Source of the DNA: an uncultured Alphaproteobacteria bacterium
Lineage (GTDB): Bacteria; Pseudomonadota; Alphaproteobacteria; Rs-D84; CACZYB01
Length of the DNA: 64,000 nt
Assembly (NCBI GenBank): GCA_944390685.1
Contig: CALXQL010000007.1
Span: 14,507 to 78,506, forward strand
Reading direction: 5' to 3'
Numbering within the stretch: the stretch's first letter is position 1; every line of letters starts with the position of its first letter. The notes beneath the pieces were generated by a model. The model was given only the letters and a program-made list of their open reading frames with translations. It was not told the DNA's origin and searched no databases. The position numbers and the translations under genes are program-made. Shown here piece after piece: positions 6,051-17,905 of the stretch.

Positions 6051-6096
6051 TGGTGGCGCCTCCCAGACTCGAACTGGGGACCTGCGGATTATGATT
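6051..6096 (-). pseudogene. 3' half (anticodon loop to CCA) of a split tRNA(CAU) gene. Left junction of the island.
   Basis: The minus strand reads ATCATAATCCGCAGGTCCCCAGTTCGAGTCTGGGAGGCGCCACCA. This equals positions 32-76 of the intact tRNA at 7930..8006 with one change (G66 to A). Confidence 0.8.
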
Positions 6097-6212
6097 ACCT
6101 GCATAGACCTCGCAGAAAATCAATAACAATCACCAAACATAACTCCCGATTAGACTCTTAATTTTCTATTTATCGATATTGATTATCCCCTGTTATTATA
6201 TGGGCATATCGA

Positions 6213-6231
6213 TGTCAAAAAATTGTCAAAA
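6213..6231 (-). promoter_or_regulatory. Tandem TTTTGACA motif pair (11-bp spacing), about 115 bp inside the left island end
   Basis: The plus strand reads TGTCAAAAAATTGTCAAAA. Same motif as 7769..7790 and 17614..17634. Candidate integrase arm-type or regulator binding sites. Confidence 0.4.
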
Positions 6232-6780
6232 TTATTCGTTTAATTCAGGTAAACCTATCCTTGATAAATAATGAGAAAAACGTATTGATAAATTTTCTCG
6301 AAAAAGTTCATTTATTGTTGTTAAATATTTATCATTGTATTGTTTTTTTACATCATTATATGGAATTGTGTAATATATCTTAAAATCAATAATTAATTCA
6401 TTTAACGATTTTTCTCTATCTTCTTTTAACAAAAAATAACGTTCATCTTTATTTTGCTGAATTTTTTTATATTGTTCGCTATTTATACGAGTATGTTTTA
6501 CATTAAGATAAAATCCCTCTCTGATTTCTTCTGTTAAAAAGGCTGGTAGAATCATGATATTTGGTAAATATTGATGACAACTTTGTTTATCATCTAATTT
6601 ATTGTCTTTACATTGGCATAAATCACAATCTTGAGATAATACTACAACATATGGTAAATAAGCCTCTTTTAGTTTTTCACCTTCTAAATATATAATTTTA
6701 AAATTTTGCAATATGTCTCCCTGACATATTCTTTCTTTATCATGACTAACGTAAAATGAATTTATATTACTGTTAAACAT
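6232..6780 (-). CDS. Hypothetical protein, 182 aa. Last gene of the three-gene operon at the left island end.
   Basis: ORF with cysteine/aspartate-rich segment VVVLSQDCDLCQCKD. No family recognised. Confidence 0.5.
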   Translation of the reverse strand: MFNSNINSFYVSHDKERICQGDILQNFKIIYLEGEKLKEAYLPYVVVLSQDCDLCQCKDNKLDDKQSCHQYLPNIMILPAFLTEEIREGFYLNVKHTRINSEQYKKIQQNKDERYFLLKEDREKSLNELIIDFKIYYTIPYNDVKKQYNDKYLTTINELFRENLSIRFSHYLSRIGLPELNE

Positions 6781-6782
6781 TA

Positions 6783-6986
6783 TTAATCTTTTCTTAAAAT
6801 TTTGAAAATATTTTCACATAATACTTGTTCAGAAAAAACATTTCTTTTATAACTACCATCGGATATGGAAGAATCGTAATAATCTTTAATAAAATTAAAT
6901 TCTTTTTCTTCAGAAATTATTATATCATTACATTTTATACCACTATTTTCTTTTGTAGAAAATTGATTTTCTAGAATTTTATCCAT
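6783..6986 (-). CDS. Hypothetical small protein, 67 aa. Middle gene of the operon.
   Basis: Tightly packed between its neighbours: 2-nt gap on one side and an 8-nt overlap on the other. Confidence 0.4.
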   Translation of the reverse strand: MDKILENQFSTKENSGIKCNDIIISEEKEFNFIKDYYDSSISDGSYKRNVFSEQVLCENIFKILRKD

Positions 6987-7695
6987 TTAATTTACTCCTT
7001 AAATCATCTGTAATACTCTTTTCAAATAAATCTTGAATAATTCCATGAAAATTATTCAAAAGAGCAATTATAGTTTTTTCCGATGGAAAATCCTTTGTTG
7101 AAACATCTATATCTAGTATAAAATCATTTTTCTTAATTAATGGAGCAGGATAATTTGGATTATTTATTCCAAAATTGAAAATAACATTTGAATCATCAGA
7201 TTTAAATGACAACTGTTCCATATATCTATTTAAAGATAAATTTTTTAAACTCTCAGCAAAATTATAAATTGAAAATAAATTAGTATCTATATAACCTATC
7301 TTACTAATATTATCTATAGGAATATTATTTATAAAGCGCAATCCTAATCTTTTATATGAAATATCATTTTTATAAAGTTCTTCAAATTTTCCAAATATAC
7401 GATTAAAAATATCCAAAAAATCTTCAAATGTAGTATATTTTTTTAATTCAAAAATTAAGGAATTGCATGATAATGAAATTTTTAATTTTTCTTTTTCAAA
7501 TTCAAAAATATTGATTAAAGAGAAACCATTTTCTGATGGAATTAATATTTTATTTTTATTGTTATTATAATCTAACAAATCTTTTACAAATTCTTCTTTT
7601 ACATCACTTTTCAAAGAATTGATTTCAGAAAAATCCAATCTACAAATAACATTAGTTATATAATTGTTATTATATCTGATACCATCATAACTCAT
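6979..7695 (-). CDS. Hypothetical protein, 238 aa, possibly TIGR04255-like. First gene of the operon.
   Basis: N-terminal ITNVICRLDFSEI and internal RLGLRFINNI resemble my recollection of the TIGR04255 family pattern. Not verified. Confidence 0.45.
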   Translation of the reverse strand: MSYDGIRYNNNYITNVICRLDFSEINSLKSDVKEEFVKDLLDYNNNKNKILIPSENGFSLINIFEFEKEKLKISLSCNSLIFELKKYTTFEDFLDIFNRIFGKFEELYKNDISYKRLGLRFINNIPIDNISKIGYIDTNLFSIYNFAESLKNLSLNRYMEQLSFKSDDSNVIFNFGINNPNYPAPLIKKNDFILDIDVSTKDFPSEKTIIALLNNFHGIIQDLFEKSITDDLRSKLNG

Positions 7696-7768
7696 TTTTG
7701 TTTTTCCTATATAGAAGTTAAAGCCTCACATCTAAATGTTATCATAATTTAATATCTTTGCAATCGTT

Positions 7769-7790
7769 TTTTGACATTATTTTTGACACT
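7769..7790 (+). promoter_or_regulatory. Tandem TTTTGACA(T/C) motif pair (12-bp spacing)
   Basis: TTTTGACATTATTTTTGACACT, between the minus-strand operon start and the island tRNA. Confidence 0.4.
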
Positions 7791-7888
7791 AATTTATTTT
7801 TAGGGTGATTTCGTGTTAGAAAAAAGTTTTGAAAATCCCAAAAATTTGCTAAAAATTATGAATTTTTCTTAAAATTTATTGAAACTTG

Positions 7889-7917
7889 TTGACTTTTAAA
7901 ATGGGATATTATATTAT
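7889..7917 (+). promoter_or_regulatory. Sigma70-type promoter for the island tRNA(CAU)
   Basis: TTGACT (7889-7894), 17-nt spacer, TATTAT (7912-7917), about 12 nt before the mature tRNA 5' end. Confidence 0.45.
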
Positions 7918-7929
7918 GAAACAATCTTG

Positions 7930-8006
7930 GGCGCCCTAGCTCAGTTGGTTAGAGCGACGGAATCATAATCCGCAGGTCCCCAGTTCGAGTCTGGGGGGCG
8001 CCACCA
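7930..8006 (+). tRNA. tRNA(CAU): elongator Met or lysidine-type Ile2, 77 nt with encoded CCA
   Basis: Cloverleaf folded by hand. Acceptor GGCGCCC/GGGCGCC, D-stem GCTC/GAGC, anticodon loop ATCATAA (anticodon CAT), T-loop TTCGAGT, discriminator A, then CCA. G1:C72 makes it not an initiator. The acceptor stem resembles E. coli Ile2. Confidence 0.85.
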
Positions 8007-8084
8007 AAAATCAAAAATATATAAATCGCTTGAAATGTTTCTGAATTTTGTGTTAACATATACAAAGTAAGGAAAGGATTTTTT

Positions 8085-10472
8085 ATGTCAGAAAGAATTA
8101 CAGAAAATTTAGTATTAAAGGAGATGGATATATCTCTTGGTAAAAATGATTTTGGATTTGTTTTCGATCAGGGAGACACTTTATCAATAACAAAAATTAC
8201 TAATTTACTTAAAAAGGCTGGTGGCAAACCAAAATTTTGTCCTTTAAATGATTTTAATCAAGGTGAACCTGGTAAGGCTCAACCAGAGTATATAATCACT
8301 TTTAATAAAGACTTAAATCTTATTATTGTTGTAGAATGTAAAAAGACAATAAAATATCATGCATCTCAAAATTTGGATATGCCAAAAGATTATGCTGTTG
8401 ATGGCGCTCTTTATTATGCAAAATTTTTAAAAGAAGAATTTAATGTAATAGCTTTAGGTGTTAGTGGAACAAAAAAAGAGAATATGAAAGTTTCTACTTT
8501 TTATTGGCCAAAAGGTATGGAAAAATATATAGATTTACCTAGAGGTAAAGACGTTCTTTATACCCCTGAAAATTACATTAATTTAATTCAAGGAAAAAAA
8601 GTTGAAAAAGCAATTTCTATTGAAGATATTCAAAAATTAGCTCTTACTATGCATGAAAATTTAAGAGCATTAAAAATGACAGAACGAGCAAAACCTGTTT
8701 TTATTGCTGGTATCTTAATTGCTCTTAAAAATGAAGCTTTTATTAGTGATTATAGAAAATTAACATCTTTTACAGCGTTGTTAAATATGTTGCAACAAGC
8801 TATTAATGAAGAATTGGTTAATAGTGATATACGCCCTGAAAAGATTTCTGATATAAAAACACATTTCCAAATGATTGGAAAAAATAGTAAACTAAAAGAG
8901 ATTCCTTTATCTCATGATAATTCATTACTTTGGTATGTTGAACAATTAGAAACAAAAATTAAACCAATGATGGATTATTCGTCTGAGGCTGTTGACGCAC
9001 TTGGGATTTTTTATCATGAATTTGTTAAATATAGTGGTGGCGATGGTAGTGGTTTAGGTATAGTTTTAACACCTCAGCATTTGACTGAATTTATGGCTGA
9101 TTTAGCAGAAATTAATAAATCTAGTAAGGTTGTAGATATCTGTTGTGGTTCAGGTGCCTTTTTGGTTACATCTATGGTGAAGATGTTTAAAGGGGCAACC
9201 CAACAAGAAATTAATAAAATTAGAAAAGAAGCTTTGTATGGCGTCGAAAGTGATGATGATATTTATACATTAGCCATCGCAAATATGATTGTTCGTGGAG
9301 ATGGAAAATCCAATATCTTTTATGGAGATTGCTTTAATAAAGATATTATCAATAATCTAAAAGAAAAAAAGATAAACATAGGATTGATAAACCCACCATA
9401 TTCTCAAAAAGACCATTGTGAATTAGAATTTGTTGAAAATATGTTGGATATATTAGTGACAGGAGGAACTGGTGTTATAGTTGTTCCAATGAGTTGTGCA
9501 ATTGGAACTAAATTTAAAGATGTAAGGGAAAGGCTATTTAAGAAACATACTTTAAAAGCAGTTTTTTCTATGCCTGATGACATTTTTTATGCAAATAATG
9601 CTAGTACAAATGTTTGTGTAATGGTATGGGAGGCTCATAAACCTCATGATAGTACTCAAAATACATTCTTTGGTTATTATAAACATGATGGTTTTGTAAA
9701 AGCAAAAAAACTTGGCAGAATTGATAAATTTAACAAATGGGAAAACATTAAAAAAGAATGGCTTTCATTATATAGGGAGAGAGATATTAAAGATGGTTTC
9801 ACTGCAAAGAAGCCTGTAAAATGGAACGATGAGTGGTTGTGCGAAGCCTATATGGAAACAGACTATTCAACGCTAAAGAAAGCTGATTTTGAAAAAACTA
9901 TAAAGAATTATCTTTCATATTTAGTCTTAACTGACCAGTACAATTTATATAAAAAAATACCTGAAAAAAGGATAAAAGAGTCCAATCCTTGTGAATTAAC
10001 GAATATAGATACTTGGCAAAAATTCGAGCTGAAACGTTTATTTGAGGTCAAAGGTACAAAAACAACGAAATTGGATGATTTAAATCTTTCTGGAATCGGG
10101 AAGTATCCATATGTTACGACACAGTCTGTTAATAATGGTGTTGCTGGATATTACAACTTGTTTACAGAAAAAGGAAATGTATTAACTGCAGATAGTGCGG
10201 TTGTTGGATTTTGTTCTTATCAAGAAAATGATTTTTCTGCTAGTGATCACGTAGAAAAATTACTTCCAAAATTTGAAATGAATAAGTATGTTGCCATGTT
10301 TTTGACGACAATTATTAATCTTGAAAATTATCGGTATAGCTATGGCCGAAAATTTAATCAGACAAAAATTAAAGATACAATTATAAAGTTACCAGTAGAT
10401 TCTCAAGGTAGTCCTGATTGGTTATTTATGGAAAATTATATTAAATCTTTACCGTATTCCGATTTAATTTAG
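8085..10472 (+). CDS. Single-polypeptide type IIG/IIL-like restriction-modification enzyme: N-terminal PD-(D/E)xK-like nuclease region, gamma-class N6-adenine methyltransferase, C-terminal target-recognition domain
   Basis: 795 aa. Motif I VVDICCGSGAFLV and motif IV LINPPYS. The N-terminus PEYIITF...IIVVECKK is nuclease-like. C-terminal about 200 aa are TRD-like. Confidence 0.65.
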   Translation: MSERITENLVLKEMDISLGKNDFGFVFDQGDTLSITKITNLLKKAGGKPKFCPLNDFNQGEPGKAQPEYIITFNKDLNLIIVVECKKTIKYHASQNLDMPKDYAVDGALYYAKFLKEEFNVIALGVSGTKKENMKVSTFYWPKGMEKYIDLPRGKDVLYTPENYINLIQGKKVEKAISIEDIQKLALTMHENLRALKMTERAKPVFIAGILIALKNEAFISDYRKLTSFTALLNMLQQAINEELVNSDIRPEKISDIKTHFQMIGKNSKLKEIPLSHDNSLLWYVEQLETKIKPMMDYSSEAVDALGIFYHEFVKYSGGDGSGLGIVLTPQHLTEFMADLAEINKSSKVVDICCGSGAFLVTSMVKMFKGATQQEINKIRKEALYGVESDDDIYTLAIANMIVRGDGKSNIFYGDCFNKDIINNLKEKKINIGLINPPYSQKDHCELEFVENMLDILVTGGTGVIVVPMSCAIGTKFKDVRERLFKKHTLKAVFSMPDDIFYANNASTNVCVMVWEAHKPHDSTQNTFFGYYKHDGFVKAKKLGRIDKFNKWENIKKEWLSLYRERDIKDGFTAKKPVKWNDEWLCEAYMETDYSTLKKADFEKTIKNYLSYLVLTDQYNLYKKIPEKRIKESNPCELTNIDTWQKFELKRLFEVKGTKTTKLDDLNLSGIGKYPYVTTQSVNNGVAGYYNLFTEKGNVLTADSAVVGFCSYQENDFSASDHVEKLLPKFEMNKYVAMFLTTIINLENYRYSYGRKFNQTKIKDTIIKLPVDSQGSPDWLFMENYIKSLPYSDLI

Positions 10473-10498
10473 AAAATACTCAAAAGAGATAAATAAAA

Positions 10499-11266
10499 AT
10501 GTTCAATTATAATGAATTACTTAAATCTATCTTTCCAATAGGACTTACAAGCAAAAACGATATTGAAAATATAAAAGATTTTAATGGAACTGCATTTTTA
10601 GTTAATTGTTCAGGTTTCCTTTCTGTTATAACAGCATATCATTGCGTGTCTAGTATTGCAAAATATCGTTTCAAAGTGACATCTGAAGATAATATCACAA
10701 CCGATATGATAAAAAAGGTTTTAGAAGATAATATTAATTTTGGATATATAAAATCAAATAAACAAATTTATAGCATTCCTATTAGTAATATTTTTAGAGG
10801 GATTTCTGAGGTCGGTAATAATATTGATACCATCATTTGCAAAGTTAATGAAACTGACATGATAAAAAATAATAATACTTCTCTTTCTGATTTAAAAGCA
10901 TTAGAAATTTCTACTAATAAGCTTATTATTGGTAATTATTATGAATTTTATGGTTTTCCTAATATTAATAGAGATAAAATTAATAAAATAATATATATGG
11001 ATAGTAGAAAATTAAAGTTAATTAAATTAGAGCCAAAAGAAGATTATGGAAATGCTGTTTATGGATATTTAGATATAACTCATACTAAAGATACTCTTAA
11101 AACAATTGAAGGATTTAGTGGTTCCCCATTGTTTGATAGTACGGGTAAAATTGTTGGAATATTAGAAGAAATAAATGAAAATGATAAACATATAAGATTT
11201 ATAGCTCTAGATACTATAATTTATTTTATGACAAATATAATTAAAAATAATTTTCACATATTTTAG
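10499..11266 (+). CDS. Cytoplasmic trypsin-like (S1 family) serine peptidase
   Basis: His motif ITAYHCVSS and Ser motif GFSGSPLF. No signal peptide. It starts 26 nt after the R-M gene stop on the same strand. Confidence 0.6.
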   Translation: MFNYNELLKSIFPIGLTSKNDIENIKDFNGTAFLVNCSGFLSVITAYHCVSSIAKYRFKVTSEDNITTDMIKKVLEDNINFGYIKSNKQIYSIPISNIFRGISEVGNNIDTIICKVNETDMIKNNNTSLSDLKALEISTNKLIIGNYYEFYGFPNINRDKINKIIYMDSRKLKLIKLEPKEDYGNAVYGYLDITHTKDTLKTIEGFSGSPLFDSTGKIVGILEEINENDKHIRFIALDTIIYFMTNIIKNNFHIF

Positions 11267-11278
11267 TTTTTAATAGAA

Positions 11279-11761
11279 TTAAAATAAATTATCTATATTA
11301 TCTAATATATTATCAGAAATTTCTATTATTTTAATAATATCTGTACAGATATTTAATTTTGGAGGTGTATCATTGTAATTATGTGCCAATCCATGCCTAA
11401 AATTTAAAAAATCTTTGAAAATACTAATATCATAATTTTCTATACCATCATCTAAAAATGATAATTTTTCTTTAGAAATATTAAAACCTTTTAATAGAGA
11501 TTTTAAATCCTCTGGTTTTAAACCTCTATGTAATTTAGGCATTTTCTCAAAATAAGAATTTATGTAATCATTATCAGTTTTTAATTTTTCTTTTAAAATA
11601 TTTGTTAATTGTGTTTCTATATCACTATATAATACAAGAACAATATATTGGTTAACAATACTTTTAGCAAAATCAGTATCTGCCTCTTTTGGCAACTTAT
11701 CTAAAATTCCGCTTTTTATCTGCTTATATATACTATTTGTTTTCTTTAAATATTTAATCAT
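11279..11761 (-). CDS. HEPN-like small protein, 160 aa
   Basis: R-x4-H motif in FLNFRHGLAHNY. Its start overlaps the stop of the upstream DUF262 gene (ATGA), which suggests translational coupling. Confidence 0.45.
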   Translation of the reverse strand: MIKYLKKTNSIYKQIKSGILDKLPKEADTDFAKSIVNQYIVLVLYSDIETQLTNILKEKLKTDNDYINSYFEKMPKLHRGLKPEDLKSLLKGFNISKEKLSFLDDGIENYDISIFKDFLNFRHGLAHNYNDTPPKLNICTDIIKIIEISDNILDNIDNLF

Positions 11762-12827
11762 TATTTAATACTGAATATGCTATTTTTAACCTATCGTTAA
11801 CATTTTTTGTAGAAATAGTTCCTTGTTGTGCTTCATATATTTTTCTGTAATCTTCGTTATTTTTCAATATTTCATAACGTTCTTTTAAATTTGTAATACT
11901 TGTATCAGAAAGCATTAAAGCAGTAATAACAGAATCTAACAACACATAATTAGGGCGAGTATAAATAGTAAAAGGTTTTTCTCCCAATTCTCTAATTAAT
12001 AAATCGGCTACAGACTTAAATTTTTCACAAAATTCATCAATATTTTTATTTTTATTATTATGACAAAAGATATTTAAAAAAGGCTTCATACTAGTTTTGT
12101 ATGTATTAAGCACCTGTTCTTCTTTATTCCAATCATAATAGAAAGCAACCAGTCTCAACAAAAGTTCAACATCTGTATATCTATTATCACAACTATCCTT
12201 ACCTAAAATCTTACGCCAGTTTGAATCTTTATTTAAATCTTCTAAACTTTTTATTAAAGTTCCGTAATTTATTGCTCTTCTAATTTCCATATTATTTAAA
12301 TTTTGCCCACCTGTATTTAATCTTTCAAATACTCCATATAATACTTGAATATCAGAAGAATCTATTTGTCTTATCATACATGCGGATAATTGAGCTGATT
12401 TTAATTTTTCTTGAAAATTTTTAGGTAATAAGGAAAAAGTTTTTCCAATAAATTTTTCATTTACATCAACTAATTTGAAATTATCTTCTAAAAATTCATT
12501 AATGGTAGAAATACGTTGATATCCATCAACTATTAAATAAGTTTCTTTCTCTACAATTTTATATAAAAATACTGGAGGAATTGGGTAATCAAACAATAAT
12601 GATTCTATGAAACGACTTTTACCTCGTTGATTCCAAACTTTATTTCTTTGAAAATCAGGTTTATAAAATATTTTTTCTTTAAATCTTCTATTGTATTCTT
12701 CTAAAGAAAAACTTGCTGGATATGTTATTATTTCTGAAGCAATTTTATCTATTTCTTCTGAAGTATGTTCTATTTCTTCTATATCAATATCTTCTTCATT
12801 TAAATTTTCTTTGATTGAGTTTTCCAT
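11754..12827 (-). CDS. DUF262 (ParB-like/GmrSD N-terminal domain) protein, 357 aa
   Basis: DGQQR-type motif IVDGYQRIST and downstream FERLNTGGQNL motif. No fused DUF1524/HNH domain. Confidence 0.65.
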   Translation of the reverse strand: MENSIKENLNEEDIDIEEIEHTSEEIDKIASEIITYPASFSLEEYNRRFKEKIFYKPDFQRNKVWNQRGKSRFIESLLFDYPIPPVFLYKIVEKETYLIVDGYQRISTINEFLEDNFKLVDVNEKFIGKTFSLLPKNFQEKLKSAQLSACMIRQIDSSDIQVLYGVFERLNTGGQNLNNMEIRRAINYGTLIKSLEDLNKDSNWRKILGKDSCDNRYTDVELLLRLVAFYYDWNKEEQVLNTYKTSMKPFLNIFCHNNKNKNIDEFCEKFKSVADLLIRELGEKPFTIYTRPNYVLLDSVITALMLSDTSITNLKERYEILKNNEDYRKIYEAQQGTISTKNVNDRLKIAYSVLNND

Positions 12828-12969
12828 TTTTAACCTTTCATAAAATATACAGTATAATTTTACAATAATTTATCTAATAAAATCAAGTTATTTTATATTG
12901 AGAATTTATGATTTTATGATATTATTGTACAAGTTAAAATACAAGAATTTAATCATAAAGGATAAGACA

Positions 12970-13587
12970 ATGGATAATAATAGTAGATGGGATGAAATAT
13001 ATAACGATGTGAATAATAAAATATTAACAGAAGAAGAATTTTTTGAATTTATAAAAAAAGATAATACAGATATTTTATCTGAATCTATTAATGAACAAGA
13101 TGTAAAAAGTATATTCAAAGAAACAGCATTTTCAGTTGAAAATATAGAAAAGATTGAAAAATATATTAATTCTGTTAATCAAGAAGAAAGCTCTAATATA
13201 AATCCAAATGATATTCCATCAAAAGAAGAAGTTTTACAAATATTAAAAGATATGAAAAATTTTAATATGTTTGAATTATATACATTTTTAAGAAAAAAAG
13301 ACAAATCTGATGATGCAAACAAAGGTAATTCAAATAAAGTAAATGTTAGAGAAAAAATAAAAAAATTAATGAAAAAACGTTATGAAGAAAACAAGAATCA
13401 AACAAAAAAAGAACTCATTTATACAACATTAGAAGAATATTTTTATAAAGACAGTATAAACAATTTTGCAAAAGCAACTGGTATTGATATAAATGATATA
13501 AAAAAATGTTTAAAACAAAATTCTAAGCACTATTATTATGGGGATAGAGCTCTTGAAAAAATCTGTAAAGAACTAGGTATAAGTTAA
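12970..13587 (+). CDS. Hypothetical protein with a probable C-terminal HTH (island cargo)
   Basis: Likely start MDNNSRW at 12970 (RBS AAGGA upstream). The ORF track starts at 12898, an upstream in-frame extension. The C-terminus ...GDRALEKICKELGIS is HTH-like. Confidence 0.45.
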   Translation: MDNNSRWDEIYNDVNNKILTEEEFFEFIKKDNTDILSESINEQDVKSIFKETAFSVENIEKIEKYINSVNQEESSNINPNDIPSKEEVLQILKDMKNFNMFELYTFLRKKDKSDDANKGNSNKVNVREKIKKLMKKRYEENKNQTKKELIYTTLEEYFYKDSINNFAKATGIDINDIKKCLKQNSKHYYYGDRALEKICKELGIS

Positions 13588-13609
13588 CCTATTAAAATCT
13601 AAAATTTTA

Positions 13610-13643
13610 AACGCTGTAATATATTATTTTTACAGCGTTTTTT
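13610..13643 (+). terminator. Rho-independent terminator
   Basis: AACGCTGTA, 12-nt loop, TACAGCGTT, then TTTTT. Confidence 0.5.
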
Positions 13644-13659
13644 CATATCAAAAATTTGT

Positions 13660-13737
13660 GAACGACGCTGCGTCGTTCGGTTTATAAACTGGATTTTGTT
13701 TCAAAAATCTGTATAGTCATTTACATCAACGCGTTGA
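13660..13737. promoter_or_regulatory. Two GC-rich perfect palindromes in an AT-rich intergenic region
   Basis: GAACGACGC-T-GCGTCGTTC at 13660-13678 and TCAACGCGTTGA at 13726-13737, upstream of the 13757/13814 gene. Confidence 0.4.
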
Positions 13738-13756
13738 ATGAACTTGTTTTAATAAG

Positions 13757-14032
13757 TTGAGTAATATCAATAAGTTAAAGCGTAATATTAATAAAAAAAG
13801 AAAGGATTTTTTGATGACTAAATATATGTTGTCTATAAAAGACTTTTGTACTCAGTTTCCAACTTTTAAGTATGGACAAGTACGCAACCTAATCTACTAC
13901 GAAAATCGTAATGGATTAAATGATATGCAGGTCATTCTTCGCATTGGTAAAAGAATTTATATTGATGTCTACAGATGGTTTGCATGGATAGAAAAAATTA
14001 ATCACATAACAAGGGAGACACAATATGAATAG
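13757..14032 (+). CDS. Hypothetical small protein. The probable true start is MTKYML at about 13814.
   Basis: ORF track entry. RBS AAAGGA lies before the internal ATG. The stop overlaps the next gene start (ATGAATAG). Confidence 0.4.
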   Translation: MSNINKLKRNINKKRKDFLMTKYMLSIKDFCTQFPTFKYGQVRNLIYYENRNGLNDMQVILRIGKRIYIDVYRWFAWIEKINHITRETQYE

Positions 14033-14876
14033 GGCGTTAAAAAAAGTTAAGAAAGAATTGGCAAGAAAAGCAGTCAGAAAAGAACATTTGATACAAAGGA
14101 AAATTAATAAGATGATAGAAACAGAAAAAAATAGTGTAGAAAATTTAAAAACTTTTTTAAATGACATTTATATGGGTAATTCTATAAATGAAAAGCAATT
14201 TAAATGCGATATTCTAATAAAATATGCAGTTAACTGTATAAAAAGATTAAGTAAAAATAAAAAGAACTTAAATCAAAAATATAAAGAATATCTATCAACA
14301 ACTACAGTTAGCAATTATTATAAATTTTCATTTAATGATTTCAAACGTTTTATGAATATTTTATATAAAGATTCAATATATCATTTAAAAAATTGTAAAG
14401 TAGATATTGATAATATAGAAAATACGATACTTTACAAAAATATTCAAAATGTTATGAAAGAATATAAAAAATATGAAAACTATTTTGGTCGTGATTATCT
14501 TGATAACGATGCTTGTTTTCTTGAATATATGAAAAAAATGGCTTTGATTGGATATATAATTAATGTTTATGAAAGACTTGATATATATGATGATATTGGA
14601 ATATTAACTTATGACGAAACTGCTGCTGTAATTGGTCATAAAATGTCATTTATGACGTTTTATGATGACATGTATAAAACAAAACCTAGTTTTAAAAATA
14701 TGTTAGATATCAATGTATTAAAAAAAGATTTTGAATTTGTATATCCATTCTTTTCTTATTCTAATCTTTTATATTATTTAGATAAAAGCGAGAAATATAT
14801 AAGAATAGATAGAAGAATAGAAAATCAATGTCTTGATATATATCGTATTAGTATCTGGGAAGAAAATTTATTTTAA
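14025..14876 (+). CDS. Hypothetical protein, 283 aa (island cargo)
   Basis: Long ORF with a K/R-rich N-terminus, translationally coupled to the preceding gene. Confidence 0.5.
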   Translation: MNRALKKVKKELARKAVRKEHLIQRKINKMIETEKNSVENLKTFLNDIYMGNSINEKQFKCDILIKYAVNCIKRLSKNKKNLNQKYKEYLSTTTVSNYYKFSFNDFKRFMNILYKDSIYHLKNCKVDIDNIENTILYKNIQNVMKEYKKYENYFGRDYLDNDACFLEYMKKMALIGYIINVYERLDIYDDIGILTYDETAAVIGHKMSFMTFYDDMYKTKPSFKNMLDINVLKKDFEFVYPFFSYSNLLYYLDKSEKYIRIDRRIENQCLDIYRISIWEENLF

Positions 14877-14941
14877 ATAAGTAAATAAAAAAGTGGGAGG
14901 GGTAAAACTCTCTCACTTTTCAATAATATAGGAATAATAAA

Positions 14942-15413
14942 ATGGTAAGCGAATACAAGAAAGCTATTATAGAAATGGCTAGCAATGATATTTATAAATT
15001 AGCAATTACATTTTCTTTTAATATTGATGTCATTAATACTGGTTTTAATATAGATACTGTTAAAAAGAAAATCAGTGATTTTAACTGTCGATTTTTTAGA
15101 GAATATTATAATAAATGGAATTGGTATAAAAAAAATCAAAGTCAGTTCTATTCACTTTGTTGAACATCAGAATAGTTATATTCATTTACACTCTATTTAC
15201 TCTATACCTAATAAACAAGATATTAAAAATCTTGATATTATAGATACAAATTGGGTATGTAAGTATAAAGAGTTAGCAGAAAAGTGTTTTAATAAAGTTT
15301 GGTATAATGGAGATATATTTCTTACTTCAATCACAAGTAATGGATATGCAAATTATATCACAAAAGAAGTGTCTAACTATGTGTCTGATTGTGATAGTTT
15401 TTTTATTCTTTAA
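14942..15413 (+). pseudogene. Hypothetical gene disrupted by a frameshift at an A8 tract. Track ORFs 14942..15163 and 15075..15413.
   Basis: The two overlapping ORFs switch frame at AAAAAAAA (15128-15135). Joined, they give about 170 aa. Confidence 0.45.
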
Positions 15414-15420
15414 ATAAAAT

Positions 15421-15451
15421 AAGAGATAAGAATTTCGAATTTTTATCTCTT
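15421..15451 (+). terminator. Long imperfect hairpin just after the 15413 stop. Terminator-like but without a clear T-run.
   Basis: AAGAGATAA(GAATTTCGAATTT)TTATCTCTT. Confidence 0.3.
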
Positions 15452-16061
15452 ATCGCACTCTCACACACTCCGGTATAGTTTTAGTGATATTTTATAAGTA
15501 AAAAAGACAAGATATATTGCACTTTAACTTCTAGATAATTATAAAAACTGTAAATTTGATACAAGATACAGTTTTAAACATATAGATATAAGATTAGTAA
15601 TAATAGTATAAACTGAAAATTACTAACTCTTATAAAATTTACTTATTAATCATAAAAAAAATTAAACTATAGATATTAAACAATTATTAAATTAATCAAT
15701 TACGCTCTTTTCAAATAAACAATATAAATGAAGTTTTTATCTAAAAAATCTTTATATTCTAATAAATCATCAAATTCATATACGGTTTTCTGACCTGACC
15801 TATGAACGACATATACTCTAAGTTTATTACTAGAATTTAGTACTTTTTCTTTCATTTTTATAACCTATATAAGTTTATATATTATATTTATATAGATTAA
15901 AATTTTATATTTTTTAGATTTATAGGTTCAAAATACATATCAAATTCAGCATTTACAGAAATCAGTTCAGACATATAAAAATAACCATATTCAGGATAGT
16001 TTCCATACATTTTAACAAGTCCAAACATTTCGCCTGTATCTTCATCTACTTCTAAAACATA

Positions 16062-16280
16062 CTAATCTGCATTAGGTGTAAAGTAATGCAAATAAGCAAT
16101 CTTTTCTTGCTTGCAATCTTGTCCATATAGTTTTGGTACTTGTTTTAATATTGAATAAAAATGATTTATTTGAGATTTAAAGAATTTCTTTTCTTCACTG
16201 TGAGAAATATAATTCATAAAGACAAGAAATTGTGATTTATTGAAGAATTTTCTTATAAAAACTAATTTTTCTATATCCAT
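16062..16280 (-). pseudogene. Hypothetical gene with an in-frame TAG. The reading frame continues about 55 codons downstream to about 15895.
   Basis: After ...HYFTPNAD-TAG the same frame reads YVLEVDEDTGEMFGLVKMYGNYPEYGYFYMSELISVNAEFDMYFEPINLKNIKF. Confidence 0.35.
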
Positions 16281-16362
16281 ACTATACCTCGTTCTTTTAT
16301 ATATTTAATTATACATTGCAACGAGATAAAGTACACAAGAAATGGCTAATTTCTGCGATAAA

Positions 16363-17454
16363 CTACAAGTCTTTATTATCTATATTGATAAAATTATCAA
16401 CCATATTTGCAACAACAGATTTCTTATGTTCATTTGAAAGATGGGCATATCTTTTAACCATTTGTAACGATTTATGACCTAATACATCAGCAATCTCAGA
16501 AGCGCTTGCCCCATTCATTGCTAAATAACTTGCACAGGTATGACGTAAATCGTGAAATCTAAAATTCTCTATATTTGATTGATTTAATGCTTTATACCAT
16601 GATTTATCAAGATTTATTGGAACATTGCCTTTTCTGTTAGGAAAAAGATATTTAGATTGTGTTTTTTCTTTCATATCTTTTAACATATCACAGATTTTAC
16701 CATACAAAGGTAAAGTCCTTCTTTCTCCATTTTTAGTATCTTCCAATGTTGCCTGTGATTTATCCAAATCAACATCTTTCCATTGTAAAGTAAGAATTTC
16801 ATTCTTTCTTGCACCTGTTGTTAATGCTAAAAGAATAATAGGATAAAGATATTGATTTTCTGAACGTTTAGCATTTTCAAACAAAGCCTCTCGTTCTTCG
16901 TTTGTAAGATAACGAACGACACCTTTTGGTTGTGGAAACTTTTTTATATTTGCGACGGGATTTTTATCAATCCATTGTAATTCTTTTACAGCATAAGTAT
17001 ATAACGCACTCAATGCTGCAATATAGTGATTTAAAGTAGATTTTGTTTTTGCCTTATTATGTGGTGTCGGAATTTCTGCAATTTTGTTAATAGTATCTCT
17101 GATAGTTTTTACATTAATTCTGCTTAGTAAATAATTACCAATCAAGTCTTTCCAAACCTGTAAAAGATGAGGTACTTTTTGTCCCTTATTAATATAAACA
17201 CTAGAATTTTTACCTTTATTCGGTAAAACGTATTCTGAATAATAATCTATAAGTTCAGCCAAAGTATGCTTTGTTGCCTCTTGTTTATCATCATATTCGC
17301 CAAGTTTTATTTTGGTTTCAATCTTGTTTGCCCATTCCTCAGCCATTCTTTTTAATGGAAAACTTTTCATTACTGATGGAGTTCCCTTAATCCTTACTCT
17401 TGCATACCAAACTGTTTTACCTTTATTGTTTACTCTTGAATTAATTGTTGCCAT
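16363..17454 (-). CDS. int: Tyrosine recombinase / phage-type integrase
   Basis: 363 aa. The C-terminal catalytic region HDLRHTCASYLAMNGASASEIADVLGHKSLQMVKRYAHL carries the R..H..R..Y signature. It sits about 350 bp from the right attachment site. Confidence 0.9.
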   Translation of the reverse strand: MATINSRVNNKGKTVWYARVRIKGTPSVMKSFPLKRMAEEWANKIETKIKLGEYDDKQEATKHTLAELIDYYSEYVLPNKGKNSSVYINKGQKVPHLLQVWKDLIGNYLLSRINVKTIRDTINKIAEIPTPHNKAKTKSTLNHYIAALSALYTYAVKELQWIDKNPVANIKKFPQPKGVVRYLTNEEREALFENAKRSENQYLYPIILLALTTGARKNEILTLQWKDVDLDKSQATLEDTKNGERRTLPLYGKICDMLKDMKEKTQSKYLFPNRKGNVPINLDKSWYKALNQSNIENFRFHDLRHTCASYLAMNGASASEIADVLGHKSLQMVKRYAHLSNEHKKSVVANMVDNFINIDNKDL

Positions 17455-17613
17455 TTTAAGTACCTATATCATTTATTTTATATAGTTATATTATATAACA
17501 AAATGGGGTAATGTACACAGTTTTTATAAAGAGATTTATAATCCTTACACCCCTAAAAATAGCATATTGATTTTACTATATTTTTCACAGAAAATGCTTG
17601 AAATTTTAATGAT

Positions 17614-17634
17614 TTTTGACACTATTTTGACACT
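17614..17634 (+). promoter_or_regulatory. Tandem ATTTTGACACT repeat (11-bp spacing) between int and the right island end
   Basis: TTTTGACACTATTTTGACACT. An inverted single copy TGTCAAAAA lies at 17705..17712. Confidence 0.4.
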
Positions 17635-17806
17635 GATTTTATACCATAATTTTAACCCATTTTATTGGTGGTGATTGATACCTGTTTTTAAGTGGAATTA
17701 TTGATGTCAAAAACGAGTCAAAGAATTTAAAATATAGAGATTTTAACCTGTATAAGTTATTAATTTTACTAATAATTTAAAGATTTTGAAGAAGAAAAGC
17801 TCGTGC

Positions 17807-17845
17807 TTATGATTCCGTCGCTCTAACCAACTGAGCTAAGGCGCC
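17807..17845 (-). pseudogene. 5' half (position 1 to anticodon loop) of the split tRNA(CAU) gene. Right junction of the island.
   Basis: The minus strand reads GGCGCCTTAGCTCAGTTGGTTAGAGCGACGGAATCATAA. This equals positions 1-38 of the intact tRNA with one change (C7 to T), then diverges. Confidence 0.8.
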
Positions 17846-17905
17846 AAAGATTTAATAAATATACTATATAACTCACACAAAGTCAATATATTTATTTAAA
17901 TCTCA

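Follow-up and report, generated by a model that had tools for sequence, protein, structure and literature searches.

A DUF262-HEPN gene pair of the predicted PD-T4-2 type in an integrase island of an uncultured alphaproteobacterium

Type IV restriction enzymes such as GmrSD, BrxU and SspE carry an N-terminal DUF262 domain, which serves as a nucleoside triphosphatase (NTPase) and sensor of modified DNA, and they cleave DNA through a DUF1524 His-Me nuclease. What, then, does a DUF262 gene do when it is followed by a gene of another kind? The question is raised by a 64,000-nucleotide stretch of DNA from an uncultured alphaproteobacterium (the window), in which a gene for a 357-amino-acid DUF262 protein (gene A) overlaps a gene for a 160-amino-acid protein (gene B). 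An earlier reading of the letters alone (the sequence-only reading) had described gene B as a HEPN-like gene standing in for the usual HNH/DUF1524 partner. Both minus-strand open reading frames (ORFs) are indeed present, with the motifs DGYQR and FERLNTGG in the first protein and R-x4-H in the second. A Pfam scan detected no GmrSD_C, DUF1524 or HNH domain in the gene A protein or in the neighboring proteins, so that the usual partner has been replaced and restriction of the GmrSD type is excluded. Because of the domain identities, the conserved catalytic residues, the gene order and coupling, the context of defense and restriction-modification (R-M) genes, and the homology of gene A to PD-T4-2A, we consider that the pair most likely belongs to the PD-T4-2 type and forms an autonomous anti-phage module, with the product of gene A as sensor and that of gene B as effector, carried as cargo of a mobile island.

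The arrangement of the two genes, 1549 bp in total length, is compact. Their overlap had been read as a 4-nucleotide ATGA; it comprises 8 nucleotides (ATGATTAA), as the frame of gene A ends in AAT GAT TAA and the TGA within ATGA is not a stop codon. This overlap is as tight as ATGA would be and probably couples the translation of gene B to that of gene A. Related loci display overlaps of 1-26 nucleotides or gaps of 0-6 nucleotides between the two genes, and gaps of up to 65-86 nucleotides in two of them (L014 and L024) by the records' own gene calls. A scan for promoters and terminators yielded 24 promoter-like sites where 18.9±4.8 would be expected, and it detected no terminator within the 12-nucleotide gap between the stop of gene B and that of the convergent protease gene. 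An arrangement with an RNA antitoxin, resembling AbiF or ToxIN, was considered and rejected, with neither tandem repeats nor Rfam matches beside the pair.

The identity of gene A is evident from several profile comparisons. Pfam GmrSD_N/DUF262 covers residues 51-186 with an expectation value (E) of 1.8e-22, and two PADLOC models match the protein from end to end: NsnA (PDLC03877; E = 1.6e-58, residues 6-355 against model positions 16-380 of 385) and PD-T4-2_A (PDLC04027; E = 3.7e-45, residues 17-354 against positions 15-361 of 363). Matches to the SspE and HEC-05 models are restricted to the N-domain. NsnA and its relatives consist of a ParB-DUF262 part followed by a C-terminal helical DNA-binding domain termed 'ParBDB' (PMC12065111), and the full-length matches therefore assign the same architecture to the product of gene A. 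Homologues of both genes were searched for in libraries holding billions of proteins. For gene A this returned 474 sequences at E<=1e-10, the best at about 1e-153 and nearly all of them about 350 amino acids long. In an alignment of 38 sequences, Q60, R61, W65, D101, G102, Q104, R105, R169, N171 and T172 are invariant, while F167 and G173 are conserved in at least 90 % of the members; judged from this alignment, the NTPase-type motifs of gene A are under selection. Among proteins of known structure, a profile search with the DUF262 family recovered only short stretches of the N-domains of BrxU/SspE-type proteins (BrxU 7p9k, SspE 6jiv), and the best of these matches, BrxU 7p9k at 3.6e-10, extends over its first 60 residues only. 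For the HEPN family, the corresponding search of PDB sequences by profile returned nothing real, and the system is therefore without a solved structure.

Gene B offers less to direct comparison, and its identity becomes apparent through its relatives. A word-index homology search recovered only gene B itself, and NCBIfam gave no meaningful match. When 1.84 billion representatives were searched exhaustively with phmmer, 15 homologues of 138-174 amino acids were found, with E from 1.4e-16 to 8.5e-4. All members of the resulting 16-sequence alignment share R122, H123 and H127, and E49 is almost invariant as well. When these 16 members were scanned against Pfam, 10 matched HEPN_RiboL-PSP (PF18735; best 9e-12), 6 matched HEPN_MAE_28990 (PF18737) and 2 matched HEPN_Swt1. 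Five relatives reach the gathering score of PF18735, with 45.7 (P0133), 44.7 (P0136), 37.6 (P0139), 29.4 (P0135) and 28.4 bits (P0134). The family was split into the clade of the window protein, none of whose members reaches this cut-off (A4), and the PF18735-positive clade (A5). Alignment of the two clades by hhalign gave a probability of 98.8 % with E = 6.3e-17 over 147 columns, placing RHGLAH of A4 on RHTIAH of A5, and a hidden Markov model built from A5 alone scores the gene B protein at 67.9 bits. By these profile comparisons, gene B joins PF18735 only through its relatives.

The pattern of conserved residues points in the same direction. The hallmarks of HEPN proteins are an R-x4-6-H motif with a polar N, D or H after the arginine and, in helix 2, an acidic residue that is often part of E-x3-[KR] (Anantharaman et al. 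2013; PMC3710099). The gene B protein displays R122-x4-H127, the polar H123 and the acidic E49 within helix 26-59, in agreement with these sequence criteria. In a common alignment of 31 distinct HEPN proteins encoded beside DUF262 genes, the motif arginine and the motif histidine are each present in 31/31 sequences. The residue after the arginine is H in 22, N in 8 and D in 1 of them, and the position of E49 is occupied by E in 30/31 and by D in 1/31; the K/R expected four residues after E49 in E-x3-[KR] is not conserved (N, E, K, S and others). These features go beyond what chance would produce: the whole gene B protein contains 2 arginines and 3 histidines, every one of them within H78-R79 or R122-H123..H127, and simple arithmetic (2x3/159) gives roughly 0.04 for the chance occurrence of an R-x4-H. 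The other of these two motifs, HRGL, is characteristic of the window clade, where it is nearly invariant (H78 and G80 conserved in at least 90 % of A4), and the PF18735-positive clade lacks it.

Structure prediction adds a topology to these residues. With the 16-sequence alignment as input, AlphaFold predicts an all-helical gene B protein with a predicted local distance difference test score (pLDDT) of 89.3 and a predicted template modeling score (pTM) of 0.85; the single-sequence prediction, with a pLDDT of only 38.8, was not usable. The core of the model is formed by helices 6-18, 26-59, 110-127 and 142-159. A helical insert (65-103) separates the second of them from the third and contains HRGL, and R122-H127 forms the C-terminal end of the third core helix (110-127), ahead of a loop and the last helix. 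This predicted topology is consistent with the published description of HEPN domains. Together, the relatives at the level of PF18735, the hhalign match, the conserved residues and the modeled topology support the assignment made in the sequence-only reading, of gene B as a HEPN protein with an intact R-x4-H motif, for which homology predicts RNase activity; profile searches thus recover both domains, DUF262 through GmrSD_N and HEPN through the PF18735-positive clade.

If the two genes form a functional unit, their association should not be confined to the window, and the sequence-only reading had left this as a point to be checked in other genomes. The order DUF262 then HEPN, with the genes adjacent or overlapping, recurs in no fewer than 16 independent loci, which represent at least 7 phyla, plasmids and a phage included. 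The locus search from the DUF262 side was performed with a closer alignment, as the 38-sequence alignment offered no conserved stretch for this purpose. Among species-representative genomes, in 6/7 loci found in this way the gene directly downstream, in the same orientation, belongs to the small-protein family (Elusimicrobium, three Alphaproteobacteria, Gastranaerophilales and Muiribacterium). From the HEPN side, 4/4 relatives directly follow a GmrSD_N gene of 354-366 amino acids. Annotated records with the pair are an Escherichia coli IncX1 plasmid, a 3.9-kb E. coli plasmid and Akkermansia phage Chambord, and further plasmids carrying it come from Hymenobacter, Exiguobacterium and Rhodococcus. 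In RefSeq the two genes of the plasmid pairs are annotated as 'DUF262 domain-containing protein' and 'HEPN domain-containing protein', and the Chambord genes are labelled hypothetical. The three partners scanned from the two E. coli plasmids and the phage match PF18735 at 3e-13 to 5e-18.

In the seventh of the species-representative loci, Listeria cornellensis FSL F6-0969 (L007 3983-5102), the DUF262 gene consists of two overlapping ORFs of 159 and 222 amino acids, and a HEPN partner was not detected downstream; the split gene is probably a frameshifted pseudogene. The small E. coli plasmid (pLR-27_3, NZ_AP027509.1, 3948 bp; L020) devotes about 45 % of its length to the pair, besides which only a replication protein and a VbhA-family antitoxin are annotated. 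Three of the related DUF262 genes are accompanied by something other than HEPN. In Crinalium (L025) the gene belongs to a true Menshen locus, with a DUF3696 ATPase beside DUF262, and the other two are found in P2-like phages. In Peduovirus P24B2 (L026 140-2015) an NsnA/PD-T4-2_A-like DUF262 gene is followed by that of a 239-amino-acid protein, and in Klebsiella phage ST16-OXA48phi5.4 (L027 2300-4203) by that of a 220-amino-acid protein, neither partner with a PADLOC match. The effector slot beside this type of DUF262 therefore appears to be polymorphic, and HEPN is its commonest occupant among the sampled loci.

Of the known systems, PD-T4-2 resembles the window pair most directly in its layout. 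It originates from a functional selection in E. coli ECOR65, is annotated 'DUF262, HEPN' and consists of two ORFs within 1540 bp (QOYX01000002:338334-339873); a 1.8-kb clone protects E. coli K-12, and deletion of the system in ECOR65 restores plaquing by T4 (Vassallo et al. 2022; PMC9519451). In both systems the DUF262 gene comes first and the HEPN gene second, the lengths are close (1540 against 1549 bp; about 165 amino acids and a 168-position model against 160 amino acids for the second protein) and DUF1524 is lacking. Published HHpred results for PD-T4-2B list HEPN_RiboL-PSP (97.8 %), HEPN_MAE_28990 (96.9 %) and HEPN_Swt1 (88 %) (PMC9519451); in Pfam, the relatives of gene B match exactly these three families and in this order. 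Gene B shares with RiboL-PSP-HEPN (PF18735) and MAE_28990 (PF18737) proteins the R-x4-H motif, the H, N or D after its arginine and the acidic residue of helix 2, but it stays below both gathering scores and belongs to the clade with the extra HRGL. The setting differs as well: the prototype resides in E. coli, whereas the host of the window pair is uncultured, has a GC content of 24-30 % and is represented by metagenome assemblies only. On profile comparison, the pair is a diverged member of the PD-T4-2-type family of DUF262 plus RiboL-PSP-HEPN, a known architecture and not a new system.

Several results weigh against this assignment. While gene A matches PD-T4-2_A, gene B has no match to any PADLOC model, and no protein of its 16-member family matches PD-T4-2_B at E<=1. 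Gene B likewise has no match to PF18735 at E<=1 (gathering score 28.4 bits), and its sole HEPN match in Pfam, HEPN_MAE_28990, reaches 14 bits against a cut-off of 26.8 (E = 0.058). Foldseek searches of PDB and BFVD with the gene B model gave no significant match, the best at E ~1.3 with TM-scores of 0.30-0.45. The likeness to PD-T4-2 was established through PADLOC models and the published annotation, and the literature describes the mechanism of PD-T4-2 as uncharacterized. Furthermore, the NsnA model of Menshen outscores PD-T4-2_A both on gene A and on every HEPN-partnered DUF262 protein tested.

As NsnA scores higher on every HEPN-partnered DUF262 protein tested, its higher score on gene A says nothing in favor of Menshen. 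The PD-T4-2_B model gives only weak matches on more distant partners, with E of 0.006 for P0138, 4.4e-4 for L020 and 4e-4 for L021; it must be narrow, because even the partners from an E. coli plasmid and the Akkermansia phage reach only E ~4e-4. A tblastn search of plasmids and phages found related pairs and no strong match to PD-T4-2_A or PD-T4-2_B. About 20 of the top 50 Foldseek matches in PDB, none of them significant, are HEPN proteins, among them HepT (6m6u and 7bxo), an MNT-associated HEPN toxin (7ae8), Csm6 (8jbc), HI0074 (1jog), 1wty and YggD/MtlR (3c8g).

Other systems share single features with the pair. PD-T4-2, Menshen and Dazbog appear in reviews as examples of DUF262 without DUF1524. 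Gene A shares the architecture of NsnA from Menshen (NsnABC; Millman 2022; PMC12065111), which is its best-scoring PADLOC model, and the logic proposed for Menshen is likewise that of a DUF262 sensor driving an RNase effector (PMC12065111). The Menshen effector, however, is an inPIN-nuclease fusion, whereas that of the window pair is a free-standing HEPN protein. Membership in Menshen was rejected, with neither an NsnB ABC-ATPase/DUF3696 gene nor NsnC among the island ORFs scanned. With GmrSD, BrxU and SspE the pair has in common the N-terminal DUF262 domain with its DGQQR-type motif, in the form DGYQR in gene A, but DUF1524 is neither fused nor adjacent here and the partner is a predicted RNase. 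DARNA (PD-T7-3) employs an R-x4-H HEPN domain which cuts tRNA anticodon loops once single-stranded phage DNA is bound (bioRxiv 10.64898/2026.02.22.705581). It offers a precedent, as an analogy only, for a DNA-activated HEPN RNase in phage defense; unlike the window pair, it is a single 456-amino-acid protein with its own C-terminal DNA-binding domain and without DUF262. Operons that combine HEPN genes with a ParB nuclease gene have also been listed before (PMC3710099, Table 1).

From these comparisons a possible course of events can be outlined. The product of gene A would bind that of gene B and keep the HEPN RNase inactive. Invading DNA would be recognized by the product of gene A, possibly through its modification state, and an NTP-dependent conformational change would then free or activate HEPN dimers. 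Cleavage of RNA (tRNA, mRNA or rRNA) by HEPN would stop translation and hence phage growth. We infer the contact between the two proteins, the trigger, the RNase activity, the RNA target and the form of immunity, abortive or direct, partly by analogy with DUF262 in GmrSD, BrxU and SspE, with the sensor-effector model of Menshen (PMC12065111) and with DARNA (bioRxiv 10.64898/2026.02.22.705581). Of the two-gene defense module that the sequence-only reading had envisaged, the DUF262-HEPN architecture holds and is validated in PD-T4-2; it is not novel, and the use of an RNase rather than a DNase is predicted from homology.

The surroundings of the pair in other genomes offer a further level of detail. 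About every second independent locus has R-M or DNA-methyltransferase genes next to the pair or inside the same operon. Genes for a Dam-type methyltransferase and a DpnII endonuclease precede the pair in L002, L003, L005 and L006, on the same strand and in one string of genes. These four loci, from metagenome-assembled genomes, contain one or two Dam/N6-N4 methyltransferase genes in addition to DpnII, and all genes overlap or lie at most 13 nucleotides apart. A C5 methyltransferase and HinP1I are encoded just downstream of the pair in L004. L014 has genes for a C5 methyltransferase and Vsr, L021 a methyltransferase gene just upstream that overlaps gene A, and L024 a C5 methyltransferase gene just upstream. 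In the window, a type IIG enzyme is encoded 800 nucleotides from the pair in convergent orientation. Pairs in L012, L016 and L018, by comparison, stand amid housekeeping genes without any R-M gene. DUF262-HEPN pairs are thus often wired into type II R-M operons, which is a mildly new point.

This linkage allows for a different reading, in which the pair is not autonomous and acts as an accessory of the adjacent type IIG R-M enzyme, as a fail-safe comparable to PrrC with EcoprrI. The HEPN RNase would be held latent by the restriction enzyme, by the DUF262 protein or by both, and would fire only when a phage neutralizes restriction. A model of this kind has been proposed for R-M-linked HEPN genes (PMC3710099) and agrees with the frequent R-M neighbors, the window enzyme included; we nevertheless regard it as unlikely, given the pairs without R-M genes, the 3.9-kb plasmid on which the pair is almost the sole cargo, the protection conferred by a PD-T4-2 clone of 1.8 kb holding just two genes, and the convergent orientation of the R-M gene in the window, which is not co-transcribed with the pair. 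Comparably doubtful is a more far-reaching version, according to which DUF262-HEPN pairs form the RNA-cutting arm of R-M systems and the window clade, with its HRGL motif and unseen by defense finders, an unrecognized subtype. Here DUF262 would read the methylation state set by the neighboring methyltransferase and unleash the HEPN RNase on cells whose DNA is unmarked or wrongly marked. If true, such an R-M system would have a restriction subunit that kills by way of RNA.

Two further explanations assign different roles to the proteins. In a toxin-antitoxin or addiction module, HEPN would be the toxin and the DUF262 protein the antitoxin, chiefly stabilizing the island or plasmid. The tight operon of overlapping genes and the presence of pairs on small and conjugative plasmids and in an integrase island would fit, and HEPN toxins with enzymatic antitoxins are known (MNT-HEPN), with a ParA/Soj-HEPN dyad proposed as such a module (PMC3710099). 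The 357 amino acids, invariant NTPase motifs and DNA-binding domain of the DUF262 protein, however, exceed the needs of a plain antitoxin, and the validated relative PD-T4-2 is a phage defense system, so that addiction as the chief function appears very improbable; many toxin-antitoxin systems are defense systems, and the two explanations are in this respect compatible. Hardly credible is a reversal of roles, with the DUF262 protein as effector (a ParB-like DNase or nickase, as in type IV systems) and HEPN as a non-catalytic adaptor or nucleotide-binding regulator. ParB/DUF262 has been treated as an endoDNase domain of R-M systems, and some HEPN families are no longer catalytic (PMC3710099). 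Against this stand the R and H invariant in 31/31 partners, which together with E49 argue for a catalytic HEPN domain, and the use of DUF1524, absent here, for DNA cleavage in the characterized GmrSD, BrxU and SspE. The stand-alone PD-T4-2-type module is the explanation that we prefer.

The pair had also been placed in a mobile island, convergent to an R-M gene and a protease gene, and this placement is confirmed by the gene orientations, the integrase and a split tRNA-Met with repeats (Table 1). The insert of about 11.7 kb (roughly 6097-17806) splits a minus-strand tRNA-Met gene at the anticodon loop, with an 8-bp direct repeat (TTATGATT) at both junctions. U7 and A66 of the two tRNA halves contrast with C7:G66 of the intact tRNA-Met within the insert; the difference is compensatory, and the halves therefore belong together. 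The presence of the intact gene indicates that the island, while destroying one tRNA gene, supplies a whole substitute and does not restore the gene through a 3' half borne by attP. Besides the pair, the cargo consists of a three-gene cluster, the tRNA, the type IIG R-M fusion, the trypsin-like protease and small ORFs; the neighbor upstream of gene A is divergent. The flanks are housekeeping genes (glycogen phosphorylase, MnmE, DUF218). The protease gene starts 26 nucleotides after the type IIG fusion, an unusual pairing of an R-M enzyme with a serine protease. The three-gene cluster, without Pfam or PADLOC match, is a candidate for a further cargo or defense module. An imperfect direct repeat of 20 nucleotides (90 %; ATTATTTTTGACACTAATTT at 7776-7795 and ATGATTTTTGACACTATTTT at 17609-17628) has its copies upstream of the island tRNA-Met and just past the start of the integrase gene, respectively, and may be a chance occurrence in AT-rich DNA or an arm-type site of the integrase.

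Table 1. Positions of the gene pair, its motifs and the island features in the window, and of the DpnII-linked loci in other genomes
Feature	Position	Strand	Remarks
Gene A	11754..12827	-	357-aa DUF262 (ParB/Srx-like NTPase) protein with C-terminal helical domain; predicted sensor
Gene B	11279..11761	-	HEPN-domain protein of 160 aa, RiboL-PSP-HEPN (PF18735) type; predicted effector and RNase
DGYQR, gene A residues 101-105	12513..12527	-	DGQQR-type nucleotide-binding/hydrolysis motif of DUF262; read from sequence
FERLNTGG, gene A residues 167-174	12306..12329	-	Second conserved DUF262 motif; read from sequence
R122-H123-G-L-A-H127 of gene B (within FRHGLAHNY, residues 121-129)	11381..11398	-	HEPN R-x4-H motif; predicted catalytic
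E49, gene B	11615..11617	-	Conserved acidic residue in the long second helix; second HEPN active-site element
HRGL, gene B (H78-R79-G80-L81, 'KLHRGL')	11519..11530	-	Second conserved motif
Overlap of gene A stop and gene B start, 8 nt, ATGATTAA	11754..11761	-	
Type IIG restriction-methyltransferase-specificity fusion, 795 aa	8085..10472	+	Pfam N6_Mtase 4e-28, Methylase_S 1e-16; PADLOC REase_MTase_IIG 2.8e-98
Trypsin-like serine protease, 255 aa	10499..11266	+	Pfam Trypsin_2 8e-7; best PADLOC match RT-Protease_XI, C-terminal protease region, 1.2e-8
Tyrosine integrase of the island	16363..17454	-	Pfam Phage_integrase 2.9e-35; next to the junction with the 5' tRNA half
Island end: 3' half of split tRNA-Met and core repeat TTATGATT (6089-6096)	6051..6096	-	
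Other island end: 5' half of split tRNA-Met (17808-17846) and core repeat TTATGATT (17807-17814)	17807..17846	-	
Intact tRNA-Met inside the insert	7930-8006	+	
Three-gene cluster, 238 + 67 + 182 aa	6232-7695	-	Tightly packed: 8-nt overlaps, 2-nt gap
DpnII-linked loci	L002 547-4696; L003 282-3562; L005 1345-5547; L006 1704-5553		Three Alphaproteobacteria, one Gastranaerophilales

Conceptually, the locus changes nothing, as a DUF262 sensor combined with an RNase instead of a His-Me DNase is an already established idea, validated as a defense system in PD-T4-2. The pair adds a diverged, low-GC representative from gut metagenomes to the PD-T4-2-type family. Neither Pfam nor NCBIfam nor PADLOC recognizes its HEPN partner, and the two-component rule of PADLOC would therefore not call the locus, which suggests that profile-based finders under-count the family. 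Two other points are mildly new: the HEPN clade of the window is probably missed by such finders, and it has the extra HRGL motif. Since the family is widespread, reaching at least 7 phyla, plasmids and a phage, and is often linked to R-M genes, a census and a biochemical study of it would be useful.

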